DNA of 60,691 nucleotides, the filler included, from Chloroflexota bacterium (GTDB lineage Bacteria > Chloroflexota > Chloroflexia > QHBQ01), in assembly GCA_043754535.1 (NCBI GenBank). It is 2 parts of 2 records of this genome, joined end to end, with 100 filler letters (N's around TTAATTAATTAA, not from the genome) between each part and the next. Parts side by side here need not be neighbours in the genome. Positions count along the whole stretch, not along the records: positions 1 to 30,346 come from JAYUUN010000095.1; 1 more part is not named here. One strand, given 5' to 3'. The notes under the pieces are model-generated. The model ran no database searches, was not told where the DNA came from, and saw nothing but the letters and a program-made list of their open reading frames with translations. Of this stretch, positions 3,562 through 58,134 are shown piece by piece; position 1 is the stretch's first letter; the number at the start of each line of letters is the position of its first letter. A program made the position numbers and the translations under genes.

Positions 3562-4299
3562 CTACTCAATCGGGGTCTTGTCGATCACGAAGCGGCAGGT
3601 GGGCTGGCCCATCGCCATACATTGCACCTCGTTCACGCGGTAGTTCTTGGTTGTTGCCCAGTGCAGGGTGGCGATCAGCACACCGTTGGCGACGTGGCAG
3701 CACGGGCTGGTCGTCTGGCGGTGCCAACACATCGAGCAGGTCTCGTTCTCGTAGATAAAGCCTTCGCTCGTCTCGCTCACCTTACTGGACTGGTCGCTGA
3801 TCGTGCTGAAGGTCTTGGCGACTACGCCGAGGGCGATCTTGACCTTGATGTTCTGCGGCATCAGGCGCATACCAAGGTTGCCGACCCCAGCAATGGCCGT
3901 GTACTCAGTCAAAGCGCGTTCGAGGCAGACCTTGCCCGCTCGCAGCAGCAGCCCCTTTGAGCCACGCACGCCATAGAAATCCTCAATCGCCTGGTTGATC
4001 GCTGCATAGTTGGCGAAGCTGAACTTCTTCTCCAGGTTGTTTGGTGGGTAGTTGTTGATGAAGCGGCTGAGACCGGCGAGGTTCAGCACGGCGTTGAGGC
4101 CGTTCTTGCCCAACAATTCCTCCATAGCGACGAAGAAGAAGCGACCCATGTTGTTCGGATAGAACAGATTGGTGTCCCCCTGGTGGGGATTAACATAGTG
4201 GCTGTTGCTGATCCCAGCAGAGGGGGTAATGATCCCTCCTGGCCCAACTGCGCCACCCTCAGCCTTGATGCGCTCTGGTTCATTGCGCTCGAATGACAT
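3562..4299 (-). CDS. V4R (4-vinyl reductase) domain protein
   Basis: C-terminal CCHVANG...NEVQCMAMGQPTCRFVI V4R motif. Start moved from 4332 to ATG 4299, which has GGAGGAGG upstream. Confidence 0.85.
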   Translation of the reverse strand: MSFERNEPERIKAEGGAVGPGGIITPSAGISNSHYVNPHQGDTNLFYPNNMGRFFFVAMEELLGKNGLNAVLNLAGLSRFINNYPPNNLEKKFSFANYAAINQAIEDFYGVRGSKGLLLRAGKVCLERALTEYTAIAGVGNLGMRLMPQNIKVKIALGVVAKTFSTISDQSSKVSETSEGFIYENETCSMCWHRQTTSPCCHVANGVLIATLHWATTKNYRVNEVQCMAMGQPTCRFVIDKTPIE

Positions 4300-4364
4300 T
4301 CCTGGCAACCCTCCTCCCGCCGTCGACTGCATTCCCTTGTTCTTTGTGCAGCCCTCTTACGATC

Positions 4365-4375: not shown

Positions 4376-5813
4376 GAACCCCCAGGAAGTCTACAACCTC
4401 GCTGAAGCTCTGAGCCGGGTATACAGGGACGGCCAACTGCTCGTTAATCTGCTCCAGCGTCAACTCGTCCAGCGTACGGTGCGGTTCGGTGATGCTAAAC
4501 ATAGTATCAGGGATGAACAGCGCGTCTAGGCCTGCCGTACCCGCCTCCTGAACGGCGCGCACCACTTGGCCGCCAGTGAGTAGCCCTGCGACGGTCACCT
4601 GTGGCCCGAACAGTTCGTTCTCCAGCACCAGCACGTCAGCTTCTATCCCTGGCAGGCTGTTTAGTTCGGCGGTCAGCTTTTGCAGCAGCGGTCCGATCAT
4701 CGTCGCAGTGACAAGGCGGATGCGCTTGTTACCCCTACCAGCCCAACCCGCGCCCGCAAGGGGGATAGGAGCAGGAGGGTTGGCGGCTAGCTTCTTGTGT
4801 AGGCGGCGGAGAGTGCGGGCGTGGTCGTCTACCAGTTGGCGCACCATGCCCACCCCGTTCTCTAGCTGTACAAAGCCGTCGTAGCTGGCGGCCTTCGGCA
4901 AGTCACTGCCAGTCAGCAGGTACCACTCGTCGGAGAGGTGAACCAGGGTCTTGCCGATCTCCTTCTTTAGCCGCTTCTGCATGGGGGCGACCTGGGCAAT
5001 CACAGCACGGGCTTCCTCTGGAGTGTAGCTCCGCATCACCTCGTTGTAGCGGGTGCGGTATTTGGTCAGCCCCACGGGGACGATGCCGATGCTCTGCACC
5101 GTCGGGTACATGGCAGCCAAGTCGCGCACACTGCGCTCAAGCTGCGTACCATCGTTTACGTCGGGGCAGAGGACGATCTGGGTGTGAGCCTGGATGTCCA
5201 GCGACTCCATCTTGCGTAGCTGCTCAATCGGGTCTGGCACACGGGGGTTGCCCATGATGTAGCGGCGGCACTCCATCTCGGTGGCGTGGACGCTGAAGTA
5301 GAGGGGGGTCAGCCGCTCCTCGTCGATCCGCTGCCAGTCCTCCTCCTTGAGGTTGGTCATCGTCACGAAGTTGCCGTAGAGGAAGCTGTAGCGGTAGTCA
5401 TCATCCTTGATGTAGAGTGAGTGACGGAAGCGGGGAGCCATCTGGTCTACAAAGCAGAACAGGCAATGATTGTTGCAGCGTTTGATGCCGTCGAAGGTAG
5501 GGTCATCGAAGTCGATACCAATATCCTCGGCGTAATCCTTCTGGATAGCAAACTCGCGGGCAATCGTCTCGCCTTGCTTCAGCACCTTGAGGGTCAGGGC
5601 GTTCTCAGTTTGGTAGTAGCGCACCCCTACTATGTCCTTGACGGGTCGCCCGTCAATTGCCAGCAGGCGGTCGCCTGGCGCAATGCCGATGCGCGCCGCT
5701 GGGCTGTCGATTGCTACCAGGCTGATGAAGCCACCGGCCTTGCGCTGGCTCTTGCGTAGGTTCTCTGTTTCCTTCAGTTCAATTTCCAAGACGTGCTTCC
5801 TCTTTTGTAGCAT
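4371..5813 (-). CDS. PDZ + radical SAM-like + DUF512 FeS oxidoreductase (TIGR03279-like)
   Basis: PDZ (DSPAARIGIAPGDRLLAIDG), CNNHCLFC CxxxCxxC motif, KDDDYRYSFLYGNF, QLENGVG and VAGLLTG. The start may be TTG at 5789. Confidence 0.9.
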   Translation of the reverse strand: MLQKRKHVLEIELKETENLRKSQRKAGGFISLVAIDSPAARIGIAPGDRLLAIDGRPVKDIVGVRYYQTENALTLKVLKQGETIAREFAIQKDYAEDIGIDFDDPTFDGIKRCNNHCLFCFVDQMAPRFRHSLYIKDDDYRYSFLYGNFVTMTNLKEEDWQRIDEERLTPLYFSVHATEMECRRYIMGNPRVPDPIEQLRKMESLDIQAHTQIVLCPDVNDGTQLERSVRDLAAMYPTVQSIGIVPVGLTKYRTRYNEVMRSYTPEEARAVIAQVAPMQKRLKKEIGKTLVHLSDEWYLLTGSDLPKAASYDGFVQLENGVGMVRQLVDDHARTLRRLHKKLAANPPAPIPLAGAGWAGRGNKRIRLVTATMIGPLLQKLTAELNSLPGIEADVLVLENELFGPQVTVAGLLTGGQVVRAVQEAGTAGLDALFIPDTMFSITEPHRTLDELTLEQINEQLAVPVYPAQSFSEVVDFLGVL

Positions 5814-5846
5814 TATCCTATAGATAGCAGACAGATAGCAAACTGC

Positions 5847-6608
5847 TCAACCAATCTCAGCGAAGACAGCGAGAACGAGGGTAGCGGCTACGACTGCTGC
5901 CGTCTCTGCGCGCAGAATCCGCCTACCGAGGCTAACAGGTATTATACCAAACGTACCCGCAATTTGCACTTCTTCAGCACTATAACCACCCTCTGGCCCG
6001 ATCAGCAGCGCAACCGAGGGCGGGCTGACGTGTTTGGCTAGATCGTAGTAGGTTTGCCGATGATGGCCCAGCACGTCGCGCAGGCTGGCGGCGCGTTCCT
6101 CCTCCCAGAGGATCAGCGTGAGGTCGGCAGTCGACGCATCTGCGCAGGCGGCAGCGAAGGGGAGCGGCTCGGCGACAGCGGGGACTCGCGCCCGATGCGA
6201 CTGCTCGGCGGCCTCCTGTACGATCCGCTGCCAGCGTTCGCCCTTGCCCTCGGCGGGTCGGGCCACACTCCGTTCGCTGACTGTCGGCACGAAGCGACTG
6301 ACCCCCACTTCGGTACCCTTCTGCAAGACGAAATCGAACCGCTCGCCCTTGAGCAGGCTGGGGTAGAGGCTAAGGCGCAGGGTCGGCTCGGTGTCCAACA
6401 CGTGACCTTGCCCGACCAGCACTGCAACCTCGCGGCGGCTGACTGCCTCCACCACGGCAGGGTACTCGCTACCCAGCCCATCCAGCAGCGCGATTTCGTC
6501 GCCGACGCGCACTCGCAACACACTAACCAACTGGTGAGCGACGGTGGCGGGCAGGTTGACGCGTTGGCCGGGCAGCAGCAAGGTCGGAGGGACGAAGAAG
6601 CGGTTCAT
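5847..6608 (-). CDS. rsmE: 16S rRNA m3U1498 methyltransferase
   Basis: MNRFF, HQLVSVLR, QKGTEVGV, EAAEQS, LIGPEGGYS and LGRRILRAETA SPOUT motifs. Confidence 0.97.
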   Translation of the reverse strand: MNRFFVPPTLLLPGQRVNLPATVAHQLVSVLRVRVGDEIALLDGLGSEYPAVVEAVSRREVAVLVGQGHVLDTEPTLRLSLYPSLLKGERFDFVLQKGTEVGVSRFVPTVSERSVARPAEGKGERWQRIVQEAAEQSHRARVPAVAEPLPFAAACADASTADLTLILWEEERAASLRDVLGHHRQTYYDLAKHVSPPSVALLIGPEGGYSAEEVQIAGTFGIIPVSLGRRILRAETAAVVAATLVLAVFAEIG

Positions 6609-6614
6609 GGCTGC

Positions 6615-6643
6615 ATCTTAGCACAGCAGCACGCTAGTGGCAA
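6615..6643 (-). promoter_or_regulatory. Sigma70-type promoter for rsmE, probably leaderless
   Basis: TTGCCA (6643-6638), 17 bp, TAAGAT (6620-6615) with TG extension. The -10 lies 6 nt before the ATG and there is no SD. Confidence 0.55.
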
Positions 6644-6902
6644 GCACGCCAGTGAGCCGCACAGAATTGCTGGCGGCGGATATTGCATCTTGTGATATCT
6701 GAGGGTGGTCTGCTCGTCGGGCTGGTCGAGGCCTGTTGATTACCAGTCCAGTCCCATAATCTGCGGCATGGTTGCTCTAGGGGTTTGACACAAGGGTACT
6801 ACGTAGTGGGGTAGCCGTCGGCAACTGGTTCAGCCAGCCTTACCGCCAGCTTACCAAAGCATAGCTACTGGGATGTTTATACTATGTTTAGTAGGACACC
6901 TA

Positions 6903-6931
6903 TTGACAAAGCCTGTATGTACCTGTATAAT
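6903..6931 (+). promoter_or_regulatory. Consensus sigma70 promoter upstream of the Rab-like GTPase
   Basis: Perfect TTGACA (6903-6908), 17 bp, TATAAT (6926-6931). Confidence 0.85.
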
Positions 6932-7028
6932 TGTGGCACGATGACAGAAGGCAACGCAGTCAGTTGGGCTGCCCGGCCTTAACGATACCCAGGTAAGAGT
7001 CTGAAGTTGGTTACCAGGGAGAAGGCAT

Positions 7029-7634
7029 ATGGAGACCGTAGGTAACAGGCGAGAACAGACCGGGATGCTACCCCCTATCGAAGACAGCCAACCGTTGCGG
7101 CGGATGGATGAGCAGCCCAGCCACAAGGTGATCCTGGCGGGCGACGGTGGGGTGGGCAAGAGTACGCTGGTACGCCGCATCTGCGACGGTGAGTTCGCTG
7201 CCCTGCGGCGGATGACTATTGGCGTGGACTTCCAGGTTAAGCGGCTGCGGGTGCTTGAGCGTGACATCAAGCTGGTTCTGTGGGATATGGGCGGACAGGA
7301 TCGCTTTGCCTCGATGCGCCCTGGCTTCTATCGTGGAGGACGGGCGGTTGGCCTAGTCTACGATCTGACCAACCGGGCTAGCTTCGACAACCTACCGCTC
7401 TGGCTAAAGGAAGTGGGGGCTAACCTGCCACAAGTGCCAATCGTATTGGTTGGCAACAAGCGCGACCTGGCGGGCGAGACGGGGCGGGCTGTCTCCCACG
7501 AGGAAGCGGTAGCTTTCGCTCTCATGCACGCCCTCCCCTACGGCGAAACCTCCTGTCGCACAGGCGATGGGGTGGATGCCTTCCTTAACAGCCTGGGGCG
7601 GATCGCCATGCTTGGCCTGCGTACCCGCCGCTAA
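7029..7634 (+). CDS. Rab-like small GTPase (Ras superfamily)
   Basis: G1 GDGGVGKST, G2 TIGVDF, G3 WDMGGQ, G4 NKRD, G5 ETSCR. RabF-like motifs IGVDF, KLVLW, RFASMR, FYRGG and LVYDLT. No COR domain and no C-terminal Cys prenylation motif. The start could be a later Met (7069 or 7105). Confidence 0.93.
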   Translation: METVGNRREQTGMLPPIEDSQPLRRMDEQPSHKVILAGDGGVGKSTLVRRICDGEFAALRRMTIGVDFQVKRLRVLERDIKLVLWDMGGQDRFASMRPGFYRGGRAVGLVYDLTNRASFDNLPLWLKEVGANLPQVPIVLVGNKRDLAGETGRAVSHEEAVAFALMHALPYGETSCRTGDGVDAFLNSLGRIAMLGLRTRR

Positions 7635-7682
7635 CCAACCAGTCACCAGATGTTTAACTAGTCTATAGGGAAGGTTGTACTC

Positions 7683-8633
7683 TTGCGGGACTCCTACCTG
7701 GAACTGTTTATCCTTACAATCAATGGCGAGATACTGCTCTACGACTGTGCCAGTATTTGGCACCCCGAACTCGATCCAGCCCTCTTTGCCGCCCGCATTG
7801 CCGCCCTACAAACTACCAGCGAGGAGTATAGCGGCAGGATGGTGGAGAGCGAACGGACAGCAGACAGCCTGATCGTCTACAGCCGTAGCAACGACCTGTT
7901 TGCAGCAGTACGCTTCCTGCCCAACATCCGCTGGGCTAGAGCCAGCAAGCTAACCACCCAGCTACTAGCTACCTACCTCCAGATCAGCGGCACTGGTGGC
8001 CCCATCGACCAGCTACGCCTGCTAGGCGACGTAGACAAGCTGACTACCTCTACGGCACCTCTCAGCGAGTCCGAGTTGAGCGAGGGACTATTGGTCAGTT
8101 TCTGCGCGGCGCAGCCAGCCATCCGCGGTGGGGCGATCCTTTACTGCCCACCAGGTTCGCTCACCTACCGCCACCTTGCCAGCAAAGGTGAACAAACCGA
8201 GACGTTGATCGAGTGGTGGCAGTTGGCTTCACACATCAGCACAGTGCTGGATGAGCAGAGCGAAGTAGCGATCATGCAAGGTTGGCGTAGCGTCTACCTG
8301 GCTATCCCCTTCAATGGTGAAGCGGGCGGCCACTACGAGGGTACTACCCTCTGGTACTTGCGGTTCGACGGCACTAGCCCTGCCGCTGTGGAGCCGGAGG
8401 TAGTCAGCCCCTCCTATGCTGATGCAGCCAACAACGAGTTTCTCAGCGTGGTGGTGCGTTCGGCCCGCCGCAAGCGGCTAAAGGAAAGCGGTGCGCCCAC
8501 ACCAACCAAAGCAGACCGCCAGCCCTTGACCGCAACTCAAACCATAGAGCGCATTGGCGAGGTGCGGCGGGCCATCGGCGAGCAGATGCTGCCTGCCCTC
8601 CACCACCTGCTGGCTGTGCCATCGACCAGCTAG
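7683..8633 (+). CDS. Putative longin-like + roadblock/profilin-like domain protein (paralog A)
   Basis: TTG start giving MRD, as in its paralog. N-terminus LELFILTINGEILLY...DPALFAARIAAL fits the longin beta-beta-alpha-beta3-alpha2 pattern. Second domain begins FCAAQPAIRGGAIL. Fold inferred by eye; ORF itself is solid. Confidence 0.6.
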   Translation: MRDSYLELFILTINGEILLYDCASIWHPELDPALFAARIAALQTTSEEYSGRMVESERTADSLIVYSRSNDLFAAVRFLPNIRWARASKLTTQLLATYLQISGTGGPIDQLRLLGDVDKLTTSTAPLSESELSEGLLVSFCAAQPAIRGGAILYCPPGSLTYRHLASKGEQTETLIEWWQLASHISTVLDEQSEVAIMQGWRSVYLAIPFNGEAGGHYEGTTLWYLRFDGTSPAAVEPEVVSPSYADAANNEFLSVVVRSARRKRLKESGAPTPTKADRQPLTATQTIERIGEVRRAIGEQMLPALHHLLAVPSTS

Positions 8634-8735
8634 CCTCTCTCCTTTCCACCAACATCACGCCTGACAGCGGTGGCACGTAACCAGATCATATTACTCATGA
8701 CTAATGTATTGCCTATCTGCCAGCCTACTAGCCAC

Positions 8736-8772
8736 AATGGGCTATTGAACAGGCCCATTACTGTGCTATAAT
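8736..8772 (+). promoter_or_regulatory. Promoter with overlapping inverted repeat upstream of paralog B
   Basis: TTGAAC (8745-8750), 16 bp, TATAAT (8767-8772) within TGTGCTATAAT. AATGGGC-N10-GCCCATT (8736-8759) brackets the -35. Confidence 0.65.
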
Positions 8773-8821
8773 TGAATGTGGCAACATCATAATTACCGGG
8801 CGGGAATAGGGGAAGAAGACG

Positions 8822-10099
8822 ATGCGCGACCTACTGGAACTCTTTGTCGTTGGTCAGGACGGGCGATTGCTGCTGCACCAGCGGGCTGCACACTGGCAAC
8901 CGCAGGGATTGATGACCAGCCCACGCCGCTTTGCTTCCTACCTGGCGGGTCGTCGCATGATCGAAAGTAGCTACTTCGGTCACACCGCTCACAGTGAAAA
9001 AATCGGTCACTGGCTGCTCACCTTTGCGGTCAGTGAGCAACTGAGCGTCGCCCTGATCTCCGAGGAGTGGGCCGACGAGCGGGCTGCCACCGACCGCGCC
9101 CGACGACTGATCACCACCCTGGAACAGCCAGCATACCTGGCTCGCCTGCTGCACAGCACCGCCGACCCAGAGGAGCGAGCGACCCTGTTGGCGGAGATCA
9201 ACCCCTTCCGCCTGGCGGCTGTCAACCTGGCAGTGGAGGTGCGCATGAGCCTGCAAGAGGTGGTTAGCCGCTTCGCCCGCCAACACCCCTGGCTTGATGG
9301 TGGCTTGCTCGGCTTCAACGGGCAGACCCCTATTGCCCTCAGCGGGCGTAGGCTAGAGGGCTGGGGCGAGTGGCAGCGAGCGATGAACCAACTCTCTGCC
9401 ACCATGCAAGAGCATTGCCAGACAGTGATCGCTACTAGCGCACAATATATCTACTACCTACGCCTATTTGCCTGCCCAAAGGACACCCGTTGGCTTGGCT
9501 TCTGGTCTGCCAACCGTTCACTACTGCCTCCTAGCAGCGAACTGGCGGCTAGCTCAGCCCTGCCACCAGACCCCATTGCCAGCCAGCTAGCAGCGAGTGA
9601 GCCGCAGGTAGAGCCACTAGAGAAGGTCCGCCTGCGCGTTGCCGCCGAACTGGGCATTGCAGCGGACGAACGTAGTTCCGCCTTCCTCAACCGCCTGGTT
9701 GCCGCCGCTGCTGCCCGCCGTGGTAGTCTGCTGCCAACAGATGCGGCCACCCCAGCAGAGAGCATTACGCCCCTGGTAGTCAGTGTGCTATCCAGCAGTC
9801 TAGCTCTCGTTCCAGGTGCTAATGACGAGGAGGAAGTCTACCGGCCACGCGGCAAGCCGAAGCGGGTAGCCACTCGCAATCTTGGCGAGATGAGTGATAG
9901 CATTCGGGCGGCGATTAACGGCCTGGCTGCCGCACCTGACACGCCCAGTAGTAGGCTGAAGGTAGCCACTGCCGTCCAACTGGCACCGCTGCTCCCCGGC
10001 CTGGACGACCACTACGACGCACCAGCGGTGGAGTTCGTTCGCAGCACACTGGAGCGCGAACTGCTGCCCCCGCTCTATGCCATAATTGAGCAGGCATAG
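8822..10099 (+). CDS. Putative longin-like + roadblock/profilin-like domain protein (paralog B)
   Basis: MRDLLELFVVGQDGRLLL aligns with the paralog A N-terminus. FARQHPWLDGGLL aligns with FCAAQPAIRGGAIL. C-terminal VRSTLERELLPPLYAII aligns with VRRAIGEQMLPALHHLL. Long Ala/Pro/Ser insertion before the last helix. Confidence 0.6.
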   Translation: MRDLLELFVVGQDGRLLLHQRAAHWQPQGLMTSPRRFASYLAGRRMIESSYFGHTAHSEKIGHWLLTFAVSEQLSVALISEEWADERAATDRARRLITTLEQPAYLARLLHSTADPEERATLLAEINPFRLAAVNLAVEVRMSLQEVVSRFARQHPWLDGGLLGFNGQTPIALSGRRLEGWGEWQRAMNQLSATMQEHCQTVIATSAQYIYYLRLFACPKDTRWLGFWSANRSLLPPSSELAASSALPPDPIASQLAASEPQVEPLEKVRLRVAAELGIAADERSSAFLNRLVAAAAARRGSLLPTDAATPAESITPLVVSVLSSSLALVPGANDEEEVYRPRGKPKRVATRNLGEMSDSIRAAINGLAAAPDTPSSRLKVATAVQLAPLLPGLDDHYDAPAVEFVRSTLERELLPPLYAIIEQA

Positions 10100-10135
10100 C
10101 CGAAGCAGCAGCCCTGCGAACAGAGCAACCACAAA

Positions 10136-10146
10136 TGTGCTATAAT
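10136..10146 (+). promoter_or_regulatory. Extended -10 promoter (TGTGCTATAAT) upstream of roadblock-V4R
   Basis: Identical 11-mer to 8762-8772 and to the minus-strand copy at 25067-25077. Confidence 0.65.
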
Positions 10147-10254
10147 ACAGTAGCAGGCACTATATTGTAGCCGTGCTGCCCGGCAATGGACGGCAAGCAG
10201 CTTCGGCTGGCTAGCCCAAGTGGACAGGACGCATAGGATGTAGGAGGACACAAG

Positions 10255-10635
10255 GTGGCTGGTGATGATACACTCAGTGAGAAACTACGGAGCATTGTTA
10301 CTCTTAGCGATGGGATCATGGGGGCGGCTCTGGTTACAAGCGATGGCTTCGCCCTTCGCAGCAATCTCCCCGCCGACGTGGATGTGGAGGTGCTGTGCGC
10401 GATCTCTGGTCTGGTGGGTGCCTCCTCGGCCAAAGCCAGTCAGGAACTGCGGCAGGGTGCCATGAGCAAGACGGTGATCGAGTTCGAGGACGGTAAACTG
10501 CTGCTAGAGCAAGGCAACGAATTCGTGCTGATGGTGCTGACCAAAGCCGACACCAACCTCGGCATGGTGCGGCTGGCGATGCGGCGGCTGGTAGTCAGCC
10601 TCAACGAAGTGATCGAGGAGTTGCTCGAGCTATGA
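10255..10635 (+). CDS. Roadblock/LAMTOR2 (MglB-like) domain protein
   Basis: GIMGAALVTSDGFAL, ELRQGAMSKTVIEFEDGKLLL and TNLGMVRLAMRR are the classic Robl_LC7 pattern. AGGAGG RBS with GTG start. Confidence 0.93.
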   Translation: MAGDDTLSEKLRSIVTLSDGIMGAALVTSDGFALRSNLPADVDVEVLCAISGLVGASSAKASQELRQGAMSKTVIEFEDGKLLLEQGNEFVLMVLTKADTNLGMVRLAMRRLVVSLNEVIEELLEL

Positions 10636-12152
10636 GCGAGGCAATCCCACCCCTCTACCACCAGCCTGAAGGCTTCGTCAAAATCGACCCGGTACGTGGG
10701 GTAATGCGCTCCCCCTATGGCTGGCGCATGGTGCTGTTCAGCGAGGATCAGGTCGACTCGCTGCAACGTAGCCTGGAAATGATGACTGGTTCGGGGGCGA
10801 ACATCGTCCTCTACCGCCTGGGCGACAACTTTGGTCGCAAGCAATTCCACGACCTGGACAAGGTGGCCCGCACCAACCCCACTATTGGGGGCGATGCGCC
10901 GCAGCCCCTCAGCGGGCGCGCCCTCGCTTTCGTGATGCAGGCTGGCATTGAGCTAACCACTCTCTTTGGCTGGGGTGTCTTCCAGCTGCTGGGTGAGGTG
11001 CTGGGTAAGGAAACCTTCGTGATGAGCCTGTTTAACTCTGGCTACGCCAGCGTGGTCGGGGTCAAAGGCCAGCCTGCCTGCTACCTCTACGCTGGCTACT
11101 GGGCAGGCTACCTCTCCGCCTACCGCCAATATCGTTACAGCGCACTGGAAACCCGCTGCACCTCGAAGGGCGACGAGCAGTGTCTCTTTATCATCGGCCC
11201 AGAGCAGCGGATCAATACTGCGCGCTTCCTGCTCAAAAAAGGGGCTGACATTAGCAGCATTGAACAAAAATTGGTCAACTTAGGCTGCGGCGGCTGGCTT
11301 CGGGCAGCCCGCTGTTACAAGTACAGGGAGGTTCTCATGGGTATCGAAGGCATGAAGCTAGAAGCAACCCCGCTAGATCAGCAGACCCTGGAGATGCAGG
11401 AGATTTACGCCGAGCAGTCTGCTGAGCGTCAACGAGCCTGGGAGCGGATACAGCAGGACACCCCTGGCGACATGGGTGTGTCGCCCACCCGCGACATTGA
11501 CGTGATGGAGGCGGGCATCCGCAAGCGCGTGCGTTATGACCCCGACAAGTTCATCCGCCTCAACCCAGAGAAGGGCGAAGTCCGCAGCGTCAACGGCTGG
11601 AGGCAGATCATCTACCCAGAGGACTTCATCGTAGCGATCCAGCAGAGCCTGGAGTCGGTGACGGGTGAGGCAGCAGCGATCATCCTCTACCGCTTCGGCG
11701 AAATCTTCGGCTACAAGCAGTGGGCCTGGTCGAACCAGGTGTCTAGTGCCATGTTCAAGGGCAAGACCCTGCGCGACTTCAAGTTCCCCTTTGTGATGAA
11801 GCTAGCCAGTGAGACGATGGCCTTCAGCGGTTGGGGCAACTTCGAGTTGGTCAAGGATTTGGAAGAGAAGCAGGTGTTTACAATCGAACTGGGCGACTCG
11901 GCCTACGCCGGGCTGGTCGGCATCCTCGGCGTACCCGCCTGCCACATCTACGCAGGCTACTGGGCGGGCTACTTTAGCGGCTTCTGGCGTACCCGCCTGG
12001 GCAGCATCGAAACCAAGTGCCTGAGCATGGGCGACACCTACTGCCGCTTCGTGATCTGCTCCAACGACCGCATCAACGCCGCCCGCTTCTGGCATAACAA
12101 AGGCATGAAGTACGAGGAGATTCAGGATCGGCTAGCCTACGCCAAAGAGTAG
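10632..12152 (+). CDS. Tandem V4R domain protein (possibly two genes: 10632-~11283 and 11337-12152)
   Basis: Two homologous units: PACYLYAGYWAG...ETRCTSKGDEQC and PACHIYAGYWAG...ETKCLSMGDTYC. ATGA overlap with the roadblock gene. Internal AGGGAGG RBS and in-frame ATG at 11337. Confidence 0.88.
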   Translation: MSEAIPPLYHQPEGFVKIDPVRGVMRSPYGWRMVLFSEDQVDSLQRSLEMMTGSGANIVLYRLGDNFGRKQFHDLDKVARTNPTIGGDAPQPLSGRALAFVMQAGIELTTLFGWGVFQLLGEVLGKETFVMSLFNSGYASVVGVKGQPACYLYAGYWAGYLSAYRQYRYSALETRCTSKGDEQCLFIIGPEQRINTARFLLKKGADISSIEQKLVNLGCGGWLRAARCYKYREVLMGIEGMKLEATPLDQQTLEMQEIYAEQSAERQRAWERIQQDTPGDMGVSPTRDIDVMEAGIRKRVRYDPDKFIRLNPEKGEVRSVNGWRQIIYPEDFIVAIQQSLESVTGEAAAIILYRFGEIFGYKQWAWSNQVSSAMFKGKTLRDFKFPFVMKLASETMAFSGWGNFELVKDLEEKQVFTIELGDSAYAGLVGILGVPACHIYAGYWAGYFSGFWRTRLGSIETKCLSMGDTYCRFVICSNDRINAARFWHNKGMKYEEIQDRLAYAKE

Positions 12153-12164
12153 GTTGCGCCCGCG

Positions 12165-12200
12165 CTCCACGTCCCCTTCCACGCAGGGAGGGGGCGGGAG
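12165..12200. terminator. GC-rich hairpin between convergent V4R and mreB genes
   Basis: CGTCCCCTTCC-ACGCA-GGGAGGGGGCG stem-loop, extendable by CTCC/GGAG. No clear U-tract. Confidence 0.5.
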
Positions 12201-13211
<1,011 letters not shown>

Positions 13212-13378
13212 CTGCTCAACTCTCCATATGGTCCGCAGCCCACTTGCCAGGCGGCCCAAAGTTTAATTGCGATCATCATGCAGCAAGGACGCGCTCCAGT
13301 TACGTCCCTACCTGGTCAGTACAGCAGAGCGCAGCTAGAGGTTGGTAGCTACATAGTACCGCTTTACTAGCAAGCTGG

Positions 13379-13819
13379 TTAGAGGTTGTTGTTGTCGCTG
13401 CCAGCACTGCTACCCCGCCGGGCGCGGTAGCGGCGGACGACCCGGATTTCGGCCAGGCTGCGGCGCAGGGCGGAAGCGTCGAGTTCTGCCGTGCCGCGCA
13501 CCCCCTCGCGGGTCGTCACCTCGGCCCGTTGGCGAGCGGACTCAGCGGCGGCCAAGTCGATATCCTCGGCCCGCTTGGCAACGTCGGCCAGGATGGTGAC
13601 GCGGTTGTTGCTTACTTCCAGGAAGCCGCCAGAGATCAGTAGGTCGGTCTCCTCGCTTCCCTTCTTGATGCGCGCAGGGCCGGTCGCCAGGATGGTAAAG
13701 AGCGGCGCGTGGTTGGTCAGGATGCCCAGTTCGCCCTCAATACCAGGAGCCACGATTTCGTCTACGTCGTCGCTGAACACCACCCGCTCGGCGGTAACGA
13801 TTTCAAGGTGCAATGCCAT
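13379..13819 (-). CDS. atpC: F1 ATP synthase epsilon subunit
   Basis: LEIVTAER, GELGILTNHAP and ISGGFLEV. Confidence 0.97.
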   Translation of the reverse strand: MALHLEIVTAERVVFSDDVDEIVAPGIEGELGILTNHAPLFTILATGPARIKKGSEETDLLISGGFLEVSNNRVTILADVAKRAEDIDLAAAESARQRAEVTTREGVRGTAELDASALRRSLAEIRVVRRYRARRGSSAGSDNNNL

Positions 13820-21204: not shown

Positions 21205-24200
21205 TCACCGGTTGAGGCGGTCGAGGGCTTCTTGGGCGCGCCGTTGTAGGTCGGGGTCGCTGCCTGCTGCCGCCTTCGCCTGGGCGTAGGAGCGGCTGGC
21301 GGCCACCACGTCGCCCTTCTCCTGTTGGGTCTGACCGAGCGACAACCAGGCTTCGGCATAGTCGGGCTTGAGGTCTACCGCCTGCTGGTAGGCTGCGCTA
21401 GCCGCGTCGTAGTTGCTGCGCCCAGCGGCGCGATAGGCATCTCCCAGGGCAGCAAACGGCTCCGGTTGGCGGGGGCTGAGTTGGGTCGCCAGCTTCAGTT
21501 CACCCAGCGAACCATTCATGTCGCCCTTCTTCAACAGCGATCTACCCACGTAGTAATGAGCCAACCCCCAGGTGGGGCGCAGGCTGGCGGCCTGCTGGTA
21601 CTGGGCCAGTGCGCCTGCTTCGTTGTTCTTTGAGGTTAGCACCAGGCCGAGTTCAAGATGCGGGCGGGCTAGCAAAGCGTCCTTCTCAATCGCCTTGCGG
21701 TAGTAGCGTTCGGCCTCATCGCGGTTGTCTTTCGCCAGAGCCTTGCCATAGGCAGTCAGGGCCGCCGCGTTGTTGCCGTCCAGGTTGACCGCCTGCTTGT
21801 AGCGGTCGAGGGCGGCAGGGGCATTGCCCTTGCGCTCCTCTACGTCGCCCAGGCCGAGCATGGCGTTGCTGTTGCGCCCATCTGCCAGCAGCACAGCATT
21901 GAAGCTCTGCGCCGCCTTGTCTTTATCACCCACCTTGAGGTAGGCCTGGCCGAGGGCGTTCTGCACATCGGGGTCGTTGGGGGCGCGCTCCCTGGCAGTC
22001 TCCAGGTTCTTGACTGCGTTTGCGTCCTGGTTGTCGTCGCCGCTATTTAGTTGGGCGAGGCCTAGACAGTAGGGTGAGGCGGGCGAGCCTGCCTGCAACT
22101 GCTCAATACCTGGCAGCAGCCCACTGACCGCCCCCACGTTGCCCTGGCGGGCGTAGAACTTGCAGACCAGGATGGCAGTCTCTATATCCTGGCGGGCAGT
22201 CAGCACTGCATCGTACTCACGGGCGGCATCACTGGTGCGCCCAGCAATCTGATAAAGGTTGCCTAGTTGCAGGTGACTATCGGCGGCGATCACGCTGGCA
22301 TCCAGCCCTTCGCCAGCAGCGGTAGCGGGGGCGGCATTGAGGGTAGCAATGTATGCCTGCGCCGCCCGCCCGTTGTCGCCCGCCTGCCGATAATACTGAG
22401 CAAGGGAATATTGCGCGGGCAGATAGCCGGGGTTCACCTTGACCGCCGCTAGCCAGTAAGCCAGGGCAGCCTCCCGATCTCCCTTCAGCAAGGCGACCCT
22501 GCCACTACGGTAGTTTGCGCTGTCGGCTGGGCTGCCCAGTTGTGCCGCCCGCTGGTACTCGCCAATCGCCAGATCGTACTGGTTCAGCCGCTCGGCGGCA
22601 ATGGCTAGGTGCAGGTGCGCGTCCGCCGAACCAGCGTTCAGCTTCGCCGCCTGCTGGTAGGCAGTAGCGGCCCCCTGCGTATCCTTCAGTTCGTCGTAGG
22701 CAAGACCCTGGTTGTAGAAGTCATCAGCAGTGCTGGCGTTGGTAGCAATGGCGCGGCGGTAAGTCGCCTCTGCGTCGGCGGGCCGCCCCAACGACTTGTA
22801 GTAGCTGGCAAGGGCGAGATAAACGCTGCTATCTTCGGGGTTGAGTTGCAGCAGCCTGCTGTACTGAGCGAGAGCCGCATCGGTCTGGCCCTGTTGCTGA
22901 TAGATCGCAGCAGCGAGGACGTAGGCTTCGCGGCGGCGGGGGTCGATCTGCTTCGCCTTATCTAGTTCCGCCAACGCCTGGGCGGGTTGGCCCTGCCCCC
23001 AACGGGCGCGGGCTAGCTGGTACTGCGGCTCATACCAGCGGGGACGGCTGGCGAGGGCGGCGGTCAGGTCCGCCACCGCCTGCTCAAAGCCGTTGACCTT
23101 GCCCTGCACCCGGTTGAGGACACCCTGGAAGAAGTTGTCGCCTGCCGCAGCCTGCCCTTGCACGATATTGAGGCGGCCCTGCCAGTATTGCGCATTGCCG
23201 AGACTGCGGTTGAGGGTGAGGATGCGGTCGGCGATCTGCTCCGTCGGCTCGTTCTTGTTCTTCTTCACTGCCTGGGCGGTGTTCAGTTCGTTCAACCAGC
23301 CTTCCAGCAGCCCGCGCCCCTTGCCGAGGTAATTCTGCGCCTGGCCCACGTCGTTCAGCCGCGCCAACCAGAGCGCACCTTCGCCCACGTAAGCGTCGGC
23401 GTACTCCGGGTCACGGCTGATCGCGGCCAGATAGTCCTGGCTAGCTTGCTTTGCGTCGCCCTTACGCGCTTCGAGGTCGTAGCCGAGCCGGGCGCGGTCA
23501 TAGAGGGCGGGCGCAAAGTTGAGGTTGAGCTTGAGCGCGAGGTTGATGTCCTCCAGCGCACCCTGGCGGTCGCCAAGCTGCTCCTTCGCCAACGCACGGT
23601 TGCGAAGCGGGTAGAGGCCACGAGCCGGGGCATTGGTGGTGCCACCCAGGCGGTTGATCGCGTTGTTGAAGTCGGCGAGGGCAGCGGTCGGGTTGCCGCT
23701 ATCCAGCAGTGCCACCCCGCGGTTGTTGAGAGTAGCCGCGTCGTCCAACCCACCCGCTTGCTGATACTCTGCCACCGCCGCCCGGTAGTTGCCCAGCATG
23801 GCGAGGGCGTTGGCGTGGTAGAAGTGGATCGCAGCAGCGGCTAGCGGCTTGTCAGTCAGCTTCGCCAGTTCGCTGGCTGCGCTAGCCGCATCGTCGCGCC
23901 CATAGTAGGCGAGGGCTGCGACCAGGGCTACCACATCGGCCTGGCGGCTGCGTGGCTGGCTGCCGAGCGAGAGGTTGTTGAGGTTGAGTAGCTGGCTGGC
24001 AATACCCTGCCGTTGGTAGCGATTGGGCGAGTCGTCGAAGTTGATCGTAATGTGTGGGCTGAAGCTGCCGCCCCCCTCGTCCGCCACCCCCCAGAGCAGC
24101 AGGTCTGCATTACGGCGGTTTGCAGCGGCTATTGCCTGCTGCGGATCCGTGACGCTCTCACCGAGTTCGTAGACGTGCAGGCTGGCGGCCTGCTGGCGGC

Positions 24201-25029
24201 TGAGGGCGGCGGGCAAGTCGCGCTTGAGCAACTCGTCTGTCAGTCGGTCGCTGGCGGTGCTGCTGCCGAAGCGGGCGACGTAGACCGCGAACTGCTCACG
24301 CGGGGCGGGTCGAGCAACAAAGGTGTTGTAGCCCAGCCAGCCAACCCCGCCAACTACAGCGAGGACTGCGACCAGCAAGAAGATAGCGAAGGGAGTACTG
24401 GCTCCAAGTGCGCCCTCCTCGTCTACTGAGCGTAGTCGTAGGCGGCCAGTACGCGGGCGCGCTGGGGCCAGTTCAGGCAGGTAGGGGCGGTTGCGGTTGG
24501 CTTCTGCTGCCGTCACTGCCTGGGCCAGTTGAGCGTCGTCGCTACCGAGCGTGCCACTTGGGTTGTCAGTCAGGCGGCGTAGACGACCGCGCAGGGGACG
24601 AGCAGGCGTAGGCGCAGGGGTGAGACGGGTGATCTCGCGGGTAGTCTGCCCTGCAAGCGGGCGGCTAGCTAGTTGGGCCGCCAAAGCTGGGCCAGTGGCA
24701 AGTGGCTGGCGGCTGAAGCTGCCCGTTGCCGGAGCGACAGTGCGGGTTGTGCTGCGCGAGGCCACAGCGGGGATTGGATTGCTGCTGCGGCGGATTGCTG
24801 GGCTAGCTGGGGTGCTACTGCGCTGCGCTGCGGCTGCTAGCGGGCTGCTAGGCTGCTGCATAGCAGGAGCGGGCTGGCTCTCTACTACCCCTCCGCGCAG
24901 GGGGCTGCTGGCAGTACGCGACTGTGGGCGGCGTTGCTGTGGGAAGAAGCGGCGGTAGACCACCCAGCCAATCCCGCCAGCAACCACCACCGCACCCAGA
25001 GCGATCAATAGCACAAGCACTGCGTCCAT
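21205..25029 (-). CDS. Large membrane-anchored TPR repeat protein
   Basis: N-terminal TM helix, Pro/Arg/Ser-rich linker, second TM helix, small alpha/beta domain, then about 900 aa of TPRs (e.g. AYQQAVDLKPDYAEAWLSLG). Confidence 0.9.
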   Translation of the reverse strand: MDAVLVLLIALGAVVVAGGIGWVVYRRFFPQQRRPQSRTASSPLRGGVVESQPAPAMQQPSSPLAAAAQRSSTPASPAIRRSSNPIPAVASRSTTRTVAPATGSFSRQPLATGPALAAQLASRPLAGQTTREITRLTPAPTPARPLRGRLRRLTDNPSGTLGSDDAQLAQAVTAAEANRNRPYLPELAPARPRTGRLRLRSVDEEGALGASTPFAIFLLVAVLAVVGGVGWLGYNTFVARPAPREQFAVYVARFGSSTASDRLTDELLKRDLPAALSRQQAASLHVYELGESVTDPQQAIAAANRRNADLLLWGVADEGGGSFSPHITINFDDSPNRYQRQGIASQLLNLNNLSLGSQPRSRQADVVALVAALAYYGRDDAASAASELAKLTDKPLAAAAIHFYHANALAMLGNYRAAVAEYQQAGGLDDAATLNNRGVALLDSGNPTAALADFNNAINRLGGTTNAPARGLYPLRNRALAKEQLGDRQGALEDINLALKLNLNFAPALYDRARLGYDLEARKGDAKQASQDYLAAISRDPEYADAYVGEGALWLARLNDVGQAQNYLGKGRGLLEGWLNELNTAQAVKKNKNEPTEQIADRILTLNRSLGNAQYWQGRLNIVQGQAAAGDNFFQGVLNRVQGKVNGFEQAVADLTAALASRPRWYEPQYQLARARWGQGQPAQALAELDKAKQIDPRRREAYVLAAAIYQQQGQTDAALAQYSRLLQLNPEDSSVYLALASYYKSLGRPADAEATYRRAIATNASTADDFYNQGLAYDELKDTQGAATAYQQAAKLNAGSADAHLHLAIAAERLNQYDLAIGEYQRAAQLGSPADSANYRSGRVALLKGDREAALAYWLAAVKVNPGYLPAQYSLAQYYRQAGDNGRAAQAYIATLNAAPATAAGEGLDASVIAADSHLQLGNLYQIAGRTSDAAREYDAVLTARQDIETAILVCKFYARQGNVGAVSGLLPGIEQLQAGSPASPYCLGLAQLNSGDDNQDANAVKNLETARERAPNDPDVQNALGQAYLKVGDKDKAAQSFNAVLLADGRNSNAMLGLGDVEERKGNAPAALDRYKQAVNLDGNNAAALTAYGKALAKDNRDEAERYYRKAIEKDALLARPHLELGLVLTSKNNEAGALAQYQQAASLRPTWGLAHYYVGRSLLKKGDMNGSLGELKLATQLSPRQPEPFAALGDAYRAAGRSNYDAASAAYQQAVDLKPDYAEAWLSLGQTQQEKGDVVAASRSYAQAKAAAGSDPDLQRRAQEALDRLNR

Positions 25030-30346: not shown

Positions 30347-30446
30347 NNNNNNNNNNNNNNNNNNNNNNNNNNNNNNNNNNNNNNNNNNNNTTAATTAATT
30401 AANNNNNNNNNNNNNNNNNNNNNNNNNNNNNNNNNNNNNNNNNNNN
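30347..30446. other. Artificial contig/scaffold spacer
   Basis: 44 N + TTAATTAATTAA (stops in all six frames) + 44 N, exactly 100 nt. Confidence 0.97.
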
Positions 30447-33972: not shown

Positions 33973-36720
33973 CTAGCGGGTGAGGGTAGTGGCTACAGCG
34001 AGGACTTCCAGGCTGAGGGCATCGGCAGTAGCGATGGCTAGTGCGAGAGCCTGACCGCTGGCCCACTGCTGATCAAACCTGTCCCCATCCAATTGCTGGC
34101 GCAAAGTGACGACGGCCTGTTCATATTCGTGGCGGTCGAAGGTGTGCAGGGGGACGTTGATCGCCTGACGGAGCGCGGCTGCCGCACCCAACAGCCGCGC
34201 TCCCTGCTCCGCTTGCGCCACAGCGACAGCAACCAGGGCCAATCCCTCCAGTGCGCCGACTGCGCCCAGCTTGTAATCCAATGCTTCAGCGATGGTGAGT
34301 GCCTCTTTGTAGCGGGCTGTAGCCTGTCCAAAGCTAGCCTGCTGCCTAGCTACGTTCGCCAGGCCAGTGAGCGACTGGACAATGCCTGTCTGGTCGCCCA
34401 GGGCGCGCATCAGCGCAAGACACTCGTCAAAGCGGTCGTTTGCCGCGTCATAAGCCTGCTGGAACAGCAACGCGCTAGCCAGATTGAGCAGTGCGAGGGC
34501 GATGCCATCCTGATCGCCTTGTTCGTGCGATAGCAGCAGGCACTCCTCGGCGGCGGGTTGCGCGGTGGCGTAATCACCCTCATACAGGGCAGTGGCGGCG
34601 AGGTTGTTCAACGACGCAGTGATGCCGTAGCTGTCGCCTAGTTCACGCTGAATGGCGAGGTTCTGCGCGTACATCTGCGCCGCCTGGCGGTAATCACCTT
34701 GCTCTGCTGCAATAATAGCCAGGTTGTTGAGCGATTGGGTCATGCCCCAGCGGTCGTTTAGCGATCGGCGCAGGCTGAGGCTTTCACCAAGTAGCCGTTC
34801 AGCAGCGGGGTAGTCGGCCAGGTTCCAGGCCAGCACACCCAGGCTGTTGAGTGCTTTGGCCTGCGCCGCTATGCTGCCCACTGCTTGCGCCATCGTCAGG
34901 CTTTGATGCAGCAGCACAGCAGCGGCGGCATAATCGCCCTGCACTGCGGCCAACCAACCCGCCGCGTTGAGCAGATTGGCCCGCAGGGGGCTGGGCGTGG
35001 GGCTACTCTGGGCCAGGGTCGTCTCTAGCCAGCTACGCCCCTCACTTAGATAGCCGCGCATAGACCAGAACCGCCAGACACCTGCAACCAGGCGGGCCGC
35101 TCCCTCCCGATTATGGCTCAACGTCCAACTGAGGGCGGCCCGCAGGTTGTCGTGTTCCGCTTCCAAGCGGGTCAGCCATTCACCCTGCTGCACCCCAATC
35201 AAGCCCTCCTCTGCGGCTTCGGCAAGGGTAAGATAGAGAGCAGCGTGCTGGCGGCCCATCGCTTCTGCCTCGCCACTGGCACGTAGCTTTTCGCTGGCAA
35301 ACTCGTGGATGGTTTCTAGCAGATGGTAGCGCGAAGGCTCATCCACGACGGTGGCGACCACCAAAGATTTATTCACCAGGCGCAACAGGCTGGTAAGCAC
35401 CTCGCTGGATTGTAGATCAACTGCCCATCCAACGGGTGCAGTGTTCGACTGCGCCACGGGGTTATCAGTCGCCAACGGCAACTTGAAATCACCAGCACAG
35501 GCTGCCTCGGCTGCTTCGAGGCTCCAACCACTGGCGAAGATAGAGAGCCGCCGCAACAAGGCCTGCTCGGCGGGGCTGAGTAGCTCATAGCTCCATTCGA
35601 TTGAAGCCCGCAGCGTCTGCTGATGAGGCATGGCGGTAGACGATGCTGACGCAAAGCTGGTGAGCCTATGATCCAGCCGCTGGGCCAGTTTCTCTAGCGA
35701 AAGACCTTCGAGTTGGGCGGCAGCCAGTTCGATAGCCAGCGGGATGCCGTCCAGCCGGGCGCAAATCTGGGCAACGGGGGCAACATTTTGGCTGGTCAAG
35801 CGAAAGCTGGGGCGCACCGCTTTGGCCCGCGCCACGAACAGGCGCACTGCCTCATAGTCACTTACCTGTGCCACCGCTGGCTGCGCTTGAGGTGGAGGGG
35901 TGGTTAGCGACGGCAGGCGCAGCCTACTTTCGCTGGGCAAGGAGAGCGGTTCACGGCTGGTAGCGATGACCACAAGGCGGGGGCAAGCGGTGAGCAGCAG
36001 TTCGGCGAACGCAGCGACGGGAGCAAGCAGGTGTTCACAGTTGTCGAGGATGAGCAGCATCTGACGGGGGCGCAGGTAATCGCAGATGGTTTGGGCAATA
36101 GTGCGCCCTGGCTCCTCATGCAACCCCAGCGTGGCGGCACTCACAGCCCCAACCAGGCGACTATCCTTAAGTGGGGCGAGTTTGACCAGCCAGGTTCCCT
36201 CAGGGTAGCGGTCGCGCAGCCGGTTAGCCAATTCTACGGCAAAGCGCGATTTGCCGACCCCACCCACCCCGCTGATGGTAAGCAGGCGAGCATTGGCAAG
36301 CAACTCCTGCGCGGTAGCTAGTTCGACTTCTCGACCGATAAAGCTGTTGAACGCGATGGGTAGATTGTTGGCACGGCGACCAAATGGGACTCGCAGAGGG
36401 CTGGAGGCGAGGGCGGTGAGGGGTGCAGCCTGCCATTCTTGTGTACTAAAGGGAGGGCAGTGCAGGAGGTCGAGCAGATCGAGCGCGGCGGCCTGAGTCT
36501 GAAGTGTCCCGCAGGCGGCAAGCTGACGGACGATGGCTTTGGCGTTGTCGCAGGTGAGCCGCACATCACCACTGCCGTTGAGCCGCCGACTGAGTTCAGT
36601 GCGACTGAGGCCAATCGCTCGTGCGAGGTCAGCTTGAGTGGGTGGACGACCCAAAGTAGTGGTAGCCATTTCCTTGCACAGGGCCAGCACGCGCCGACGG
36701 AAGGTGTCCAAATCATACAT
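33973..36720 (-). CDS. XRE-like HTH + STAND (NB-ARC/AfsR-like) ATPase + TPR regulator
   Basis: TQADLARAIGLSRTELSRRLNG HTH, GVGGVGKS Walker A, LLILDNCEH Walker B, TSRE, LDGIPLAIELAAA and C-terminal TPRs. Confidence 0.92.
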   Translation of the reverse strand: MYDLDTFRRRVLALCKEMATTTLGRPPTQADLARAIGLSRTELSRRLNGSGDVRLTCDNAKAIVRQLAACGTLQTQAAALDLLDLLHCPPFSTQEWQAAPLTALASSPLRVPFGRRANNLPIAFNSFIGREVELATAQELLANARLLTISGVGGVGKSRFAVELANRLRDRYPEGTWLVKLAPLKDSRLVGAVSAATLGLHEEPGRTIAQTICDYLRPRQMLLILDNCEHLLAPVAAFAELLLTACPRLVVIATSREPLSLPSESRLRLPSLTTPPPQAQPAVAQVSDYEAVRLFVARAKAVRPSFRLTSQNVAPVAQICARLDGIPLAIELAAAQLEGLSLEKLAQRLDHRLTSFASASSTAMPHQQTLRASIEWSYELLSPAEQALLRRLSIFASGWSLEAAEAACAGDFKLPLATDNPVAQSNTAPVGWAVDLQSSEVLTSLLRLVNKSLVVATVVDEPSRYHLLETIHEFASEKLRASGEAEAMGRQHAALYLTLAEAAEEGLIGVQQGEWLTRLEAEHDNLRAALSWTLSHNREGAARLVAGVWRFWSMRGYLSEGRSWLETTLAQSSPTPSPLRANLLNAAGWLAAVQGDYAAAAVLLHQSLTMAQAVGSIAAQAKALNSLGVLAWNLADYPAAERLLGESLSLRRSLNDRWGMTQSLNNLAIIAAEQGDYRQAAQMYAQNLAIQRELGDSYGITASLNNLAATALYEGDYATAQPAAEECLLLSHEQGDQDGIALALLNLASALLFQQAYDAANDRFDECLALMRALGDQTGIVQSLTGLANVARQQASFGQATARYKEALTIAEALDYKLGAVGALEGLALVAVAVAQAEQGARLLGAAAALRQAINVPLHTFDRHEYEQAVVTLRQQLDGDRFDQQWASGQALALAIATADALSLEVLAVATTLTR

Positions 36721-57865: not shown

Positions 57866-57975
57866 CACCCGCCTCCTTCTTGCTTGTCCGCTGCAAAGGG
57901 CCACGTTGCCGAGTCCCAGGCTAACCCTGATCCTGCCCATTGTACAGCCACTCTGTTGCATCTCATTGGGGTTTG

Positions 57976-58013
57976 TTGTCCATTTTGTTGGCCTTCATTG
58001 GCCTCCTTTGGTC
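57976..58013. repeat. Phased hexamer repeats (TTGGCC-like) in a divergent promoter region
   Basis: TTGTCC 57976, TTGGCC 57988, TTGGCC 57998 and TTGGTC 58008. Confidence 0.5.
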
Positions 58014-58134
58014 AGTTTGTTGCATTTGGCAATTGCGTATCAGATGTAAAGGTTATATAATCGTCAGCAGGAGGTCACACGGCTCACTTATTGGCGACAA
58101 TTGTACCTTGCTCAGCGGTGGAGGGAGACAAGCA

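Follow-up and report, generated by a model that had tools for sequence, protein, structure and literature searches.

Control of Rab GTPases by dimers of longin proteins is usually regarded as a trait of eukaryotes and Asgard archaea, and the question raised here is whether a bacterium may possess such a system as well. The window, by which we mean the whole stretch of 60,691 nucleotides that was analysed, comes from an uncultured Chloroflexia bacterium of the phylum Chloroflexota (GCA_043754535.1; genome G000, 3.87 Mb, 89% complete), and in it the genes of two proteins, here called A and B, follow the gene of a small GTPase. An earlier note on this DNA had read A and B as divergent paralogs, each with a longin domain and a split roadblock-like domain, which act as a heterodimeric guanine nucleotide exchange factor (GEF) on the adjacent GTPase. 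Our results show that A and B are a real, intact and conserved orphan paralog pair under purifying selection; a fold of the longin/roadblock superfamily is likely for their first domains, and a heterodimeric GEF is plausible.

Proteins A and B and their gene block

A and B are encoded by two open reading frames (ORFs) on the plus strand and are 26% identical over 220 columns (BLASTP, E 5e-12); with phmmer the pair scored 29.2 bits, as compared to 3.4 bits for the best of 500 shuffles of B, and the proposed paralogy is thus well founded. Both carry the common N-terminal motif that had been noticed, a second shared block joins A140-190 to B151-192, and all four homologous segments of A, the terminal helix included, are found in B too. 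The terminal helices, compared end to end, gave a BLOSUM62 score of 30, which was matched by 5/1500 and 2/1500 C-termini in a null of genome ORFs, spurious ones among them, and this similarity is therefore also beyond chance. Because the motif, the blocks and the terminal helix are shared, the anatomy described earlier stands, except that the supposed low-complexity insertion is not featureless: the tails are indeed rich in alanine, proline and serine (fraction 0.34 in A and 0.40 in B vs 0.23 and 0.22), but they contain a further shared helix (A246-263 and B280-300; the best ungapped 22-mer, with a score of 33 that 57 of 1000 shuffles reach), which in A lies in the best-predicted stretch of the structural model, and they are under purifying selection. 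The ratio of nonsynonymous to synonymous substitution rates (dN/dS) against the same-genus genome G001 was 0.21 and 0.27 for the tails, 0.07 for A1-186, 0.17 for A147-316, 0.15 and 0.12 for the domains of B and 0.19 for B overall; it was 0.08 for the GTPase and 0, with no amino-acid change, for a roadblock protein encoded downstream. Within both A and B the constraint was greatest in the two N-terminal domains. Neither A nor B matched a Pfam or NCBIfam family, comparison of both with Asgard proteins found no sequence homology, and the 89%-complete genome holds no third copy.

The two genes belong to a row of five on the plus strand of contig C95 (window positions 1-30346), between a gene at 5847-6608 that we take to be rsmE-like and one at 12201-13259 that is presumably mreB-like. 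The features of this block are as follows.

6903..6931, plus strand: promoter-like site of sigma-70 type upstream of the GTPase gene (perfect 12/12, spacer 17; both hexamers kept in G001)
7029..7634, plus strand: stand-alone Rab-like small GTPase, 201 aa (Pfam Ras, 2.7e-40)
7683..8633, plus strand: protein A, 316 aa, TTG start
7683..8027, plus strand: domain 1 of A (about residues 1-115), probable longin/roadblock-superfamily fold
8079..8366, plus strand: domain 2 of A (about residues 133-228), alpha/beta unit common to A and B by alignment
8418..8489, plus strand: helix within the tail of A (about 246-269) resembling B280-300, candidate last helix of domain 2
8562..8612, plus strand: terminal helix of A (294-310), like B406-422
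8745..8772, plus strand: promoter-like site with extended -10, 5' of B (extended -10 kept in G001)
8822..10099, plus strand: protein B, 425 aa, a longer-tailed paralog of A
8822..9196, plus strand: domain 1 of B (about residues 1-125), probable longin/roadblock-superfamily fold
10037..10087, plus strand: terminal helix of B (406-422)
10136..10146, plus strand: extended -10 promoter-like 11-mer 5' of the roadblock gene (kept in G001)
10255..10635, plus strand: stand-alone roadblock/LC7 protein, 126 aa (Pfam Robl_LC7, 1.7e-10)
10632..12152, plus strand: tandem V4R protein whose start overlaps with the stop of the roadblock gene (two Pfam V4R stretches, 9e-25)

The block is not an assembly artefact, since single contigs span positions 5500-13500 in three of four sequencing runs from different studies (14-17 differences; the fourth run gave fragments only). 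Two of the spanning runs are flagged as possibly the origin of this DNA; no such flag is on the third (X10), which shows an in-frame loss of 3 bases within A. G001 has the identical gene order, split over two contigs. A starts 48 bp 3' of the GTPase stop, and the promoter scan listed no promoter-like site in this gap; the scan requires a -35 box, hence the site at 10136..10146 is not among its listings. The 11-mer of the extended -10 site at B has 104 occurrences in the genome. As promoter-like sites precede the GTPase, B and roadblock genes and are all kept in G001, GTPase-A, B and roadblock-V4R look like three putative transcription units inside one block. The composition of the block is close to that of the host. 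In the family genomes G002-G004, rsmE and mreB lie on separate contigs and next to other genes, so a single clean insertion is not demonstrated.

Folds of the two domains

The longin topology proposed for the first domains was seen in a low-confidence model of A and not in the model of B. Residues 4-115 of the A model run strand-strand-helix-three strands-helix-helix, which is the longin element order, at a mean predicted local distance difference test score of only 36.9, and the AlphaFold2 model of B was uninformative and did not resolve this order. In Foldseek searches with the A model, most of the 45 listed rows (about 34, and nine of the ten best) were by title longin, roadblock or profilin proteins or their complexes, the fold labels being our own assignment; MglB was among them, and the structure rows cover A 1-113. 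A longin-like profile was built from nine uncurated longin-like domains, eight of them from genes beside Rab/Rup GTPases of other Chloroflexota. It scored A1-120 at z 3.1, a value reached by 2/300 shuffles and 2/600 N-termini of genome ORFs, and B1-130 at z 4.1 (0/300 and 1/600); a true roadblock gave z 3.8 and the GTPase and V4R controls about 0. By language-model features (Atlas), the clusters nearest to A(1-235) and B(1-235) were Asgard archaeal (0.91-0.93), their members being hypothetical proteins, and a Fuz_longin_1 cluster stood at 0.83 for both. Several weak but concordant supports thus make it likely that domain 1 of A and B has a fold of the longin/roadblock superfamily.

A and B have a second domain in common, around the shared block at A140-190 and B151-192, and by eye it shows helix, two strands, helix, three strands and helix, a pattern which would suit a roadblock. 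The split-roadblock identity given to it earlier, however, lacks sequence support. No roadblock hidden Markov model matched domain 2 of A or B, and a profile built from 31 roadblocks of six Chloroflexia genomes, which permitted a long gap before the last helix, scored A125-316 and B135-425 within the shuffle range (reached by 22/100 and 47/100 shuffles; control roadblock 0/100). The longin-like profile gave z 1.6 for domain 2 of A and -1.0 for that of B. Residues 353-373 of B (about 9878-9940) are the best window of B for the profile of the last roadblock helix (8.1 vs 24.6 for a true roadblock, not significant) and form an alternative candidate helix closing domain 2.

The GTPase, its relatives and its neighbours

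That the adjacent GTPase is Rab-like, as the earlier note said, was borne out by its Pfam Ras match and by its closest solved sequences, which are Rab26, Rab2A and, third, a Thorarchaeota Rab. It is a single domain with intact eukaryote-like G1-G5 motifs, keeps the catalytic G3 glutamine and has no C-terminal cysteine. It is the only close match to the GTPase query in the genome, and record L006 of a Chloroflexia bacterium holds a 96% identical GTPase. In switch I, the register of which is fixed by the G2 threonine T63, R60 and R61 precede this threonine and R60 is invariant in 7/7 aligned GTPases; this arginine stands three residues before the G2 threonine, whereas in the MglA-type GTPase of the genome the arginine is directly before it. 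For the position of the switch I motif we presume Rab7 numbering. In a quick tree of 88 rows the GTPase joins P0003 (98), then P0004-P0007 and receiver-domain fusions (85), next the G083 and G106 GTPases together with two rows on long branches (82), and it lies outside the 18-row clade of Rup group 1 (Shimodaira-Hasegawa-like approximate likelihood ratio test, 100). Rab-like GTPases of this clade also occur fused to a receiver domain (L027:4899-5840, L028, L029:2233-3225 and P0005), which suggests a possible control through phosphorylation; L027 and L029 have no longin-like neighbour.

Among the genomes searched, the GTPase, A and the tandem V4R protein were found only in this Chloroflexia genus: A in 2/61 genomes of relatives and the tandem V4R protein in 2/40 genomes of the order (in each case G000 and G001), and the GTPase in one of four other genomes of the family (G001), the remaining family genomes being 83-84% complete. 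The GTPase profile at E 1e-25 matched 22 of 401 genomes of the phylum, namely itself, two close and 19 distant GTPases. In both close ones (G083 and G106, the nearest for which GTDB gives genome context) a longin-like gene lies immediately upstream, and 18 of the 19 distant ones adjoin such a gene. The longin-like genes of G106 (L108:1489-3010) and G083 (L109:1489-3196) encode a soluble protein that is proline-rich at its start, has a weak stretch resembling SHOCT and carries a longin-like domain at the C-terminus, and the gene of a Rab-like GTPase with the G3 glutamine retained follows directly; the homolog of this longin-like protein in G089 has no GTPase nearby. The loci L110-L128, except L124, are Rup group 1 cassettes in 18/401 Chloroflexota genomes, and their third gene, of a "domain of unknown function", shows a longin-like pattern.

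The GTPase fits the definition of the Rup family, i.e., prokaryotic small Ras/Rab-like GTPases (PMC4316618), but does not belong to Rup group 1. Members of group 1 are described there as without the G3 glutamine and with coiled-coil, membrane/OmpA and kinase or cyclase neighbours (PMC4316618). Our locus resembles them as a stand-alone Ras/Rab-like GTPase of Chloroflexota, and the neighbour gene holds a longin-like stretch at 18/19 such loci; it differs in the retained glutamine, in its place outside the clade and in the absence of those kinds of neighbours, its partner proteins looking soluble and duplicated.

As for the other genes of the block, the best solved match of the roadblock protein was 7f8m (E 3e-13). 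The two domains of the tandem V4R protein are 41% alike; its best solved match was the MopR sensor domain (E 6e-5), it is also close to the ligand sensor MsvR, and no TRAPP subunit was among its four solved matches at E up to 10 (MopR/PoxR/MJ1460). A second, stand-alone V4R gene lies 2.7 kb upstream of the block (3562-4332, minus strand). Contig C82 carries a paralog of it at 33%, and five V4R and eight roadblock matches are present in the genome. At L169 (G002:C237) a gene that looks V4R-like by eye lies between two roadblock genes, so the family may hold further roadblock-V4R pairs that lack the Rab-like GTPase. Elsewhere in the window, a 1274-aa membrane-anchored protein that looks TPR-rich by eye is encoded upstream of ATP synthase genes (21205-25029, minus strand), and an N run at about 30347-30390 joins the two pieces. 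Two similar NTPase/TPR regulators with an unusual helix-turn-helix-like N-terminal region (33973-36720, minus strand, and 57940-60633, plus strand) lie on either side of the genes of giant, secreted proteins that resemble subtilases (3395 and 1193 aa; all by eye).

Proposed regulation of the GTPase

Longin and roadblock dimers serve as platforms for small GTPases and are mostly exchange factors (PMC3747258, PMC10933270). We propose that A and B, as an old duplicate pair with N-terminal domains of longin-type fold, would dimerise by means of these domains, most likely as A-B, and so provide a two-domain docking platform for a GTPase. This platform would set the nucleotide state of the upstream Rab-like GTPase, most likely by faster nucleotide exchange, to which we lean because the GTPase has its own glutamine. 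Domain 2 and the helical tails could add contact or localisation surfaces, and the downstream roadblock and tandem V4R proteins may feed signals in. Dimerisation of A and B, GTPase binding and exchange activity are what we infer, and a longin-type dimer, probably A-B, that controls the neighbouring GTPase is put forward tentatively, as quite possible.

The earlier analogy with Mon1-Ccz1, HPS1-HPS4 and Inturned-Fuzzy fails in two defining features. These tri-longin RabGEFs have three longin domains per subunit and their substrates need Y-K/R in switch I, a Y-to-R change in this motif abolishing the stimulation of Rab23 (PMC12383261). A GEF of the Mon1-Ccz1 type was rejected here, there being no third longin in A or B and R-R at the Y-K/R position of the GTPase; homology and strands stop near residue 230, beyond which A retains 84 residues that are rich in alanine, proline and serine and hold helices. 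Shared with the tri-longin RabGEFs (BLOC-3, in the case of HPS1-HPS4) are two paralogous subunits, a probable N-terminal longin and a Rab-type GTPase with a G3 glutamine as candidate client, and the differences are the two alpha/beta units of A and B, the bacterial host and a GTPase without prenylation cysteines. A and B may act like a longin-dimer GEF but are not members of this family. The locus resembles MglA-MglB in that a small GTPase clusters with a roadblock gene, and departs from it in the Ras/Rab type of the GTPase, in the multi-domain A and B and in the separate MglA-type loci of the genome. The same set of candidate folds occurs in the TRAPP core (the Bet5/Trs23 longin heterodimer plus Bet3-like subunits) and among the Rab, roadblock, longin and TRAPPC3-V4R proteins of Asgard archaea; unlike the Asgard set, the genes here are clustered, in a bacterium, and the V4R is sensor-like, the GTPase genes of MK-D1 being generally not in operons with roadblock, longin or TRAPPC3-V4R genes (PMC10933270).

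Several results weigh against a longin-type A-B dimer. Foldseek and structure comparison of A gave no significant fold match, with PAS/LOV, phytochrome, Mrs2 and spermine synthase rows intermixed with the longin rows; the isolated domains had no match up to E 10 among the longin families of Pfam, and no Fuz_longin_1 match was obtained (PF19036 search, 0/1 genome). B has its own promoter-like site, conserved in G001. The missing fold assignment would agree with A and B being PAS/GAF/profilin-like sensors or scaffolds, or some other alpha/beta fold, that do not act on the GTPase and sit in a chance gene cluster, and the likeness of the V4R neighbour to the ligand sensors MopR and MsvR, the three promoter-like sites and the other neighbours of rsmE and mreB in G002-G004 point the same way. 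We nevertheless consider this unlikely, as the longin/roadblock signals are concordant across three kinds of method, a true roadblock gene and the Rab-like GTPase lie within the same 5-kb block, and a longin-like gene adjoins nearly all distant and both closer GTPase matches. A rather less improbable alternative keeps the fold but lets a homodimer of A partner the GTPase, as MglB does MglA, in the role of a GTPase-activating protein (GAP), GEF/GAP or effector, with B and roadblock-V4R as separately transcribed units that would work apart or under other conditions. A is within the putative transcription unit of the GTPase, conserved promoter-like sites precede B and, separately, roadblock-V4R, A and B are just 26% alike, the related system of G083 and G106 has one longin-like gene rather than two, roadblock regulators of prokaryotes are homodimers (PMC3747258), and the invariant switch I arginine could serve catalysis. 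The retained G3 glutamine, the distance of this arginine from the G2 threonine and the presence in B of every segment homologous to A speak otherwise, and we regard a separate A homodimer as somewhat unlikely.

At the other extreme, the five genes might encode one complex like the TRAPP core, in which an A-B longin heterodimer flanked by a V4R pseudo-dimer, with the roadblock as accessory, is the GEF of the GTPase. Every fold class of the TRAPP core has a candidate in the block, a structural relationship links V4R to TRAPPC3 (PMC10933270), the two V4R domains in tandem could imitate the dimer of TRAPPC3 and C6, and the V4R has the same genome range as the GTPase; the V4R domains, however, match the V4R of phenol sensors and no TRAPP subunit, the pairing of roadblock with V4R apparently exists where this GTPase is absent (G002, L169), and the promoters are separate, which makes such a complex very improbable. 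The fuller claim of a bacterial Rab-like GTPase with a eukaryote-style paralogous longin-heterodimer GEF, possibly with V4R and roadblock as a minimal TRAPP-like machine, is doubtful.

A 2013 review states that longin domains are absent from prokaryotes (PMC3747258), and according to PMC4316618 no Rup GTPase had been characterised. Of the proteins with a longin/roadblock signature, 48% are reported to belong to structural clusters common to all four lineages (bioRxiv 10.64898/2026.10.28.762692), and the occurrence of the superfamily in bacteria is therefore not new as such. Our search of the literature on longin with bacteria, Rup or Chloroflexota, in which most subscription papers were not covered and outside which lie the supplements of PMC4316618, whose lists of Rup neighbourhoods could include this subgroup, found no such system described. 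If A and B do not regulate the GTPase, they are an orphan paralog pair beside an unusual GTPase. If the fuller claim is true, a Rab GEF made of a longin heterodimer would exist beyond the eukaryotes and Asgard archaea, and it would be simple enough for reconstitution from five soluble proteins. Regulation of the GTPase by A and B would give a compact test case, in a bacterium, of the way in which longin/roadblock platforms gained control over Rabs, and would bear on whether this pairing had a single origin or was shuffled between the domains of life.
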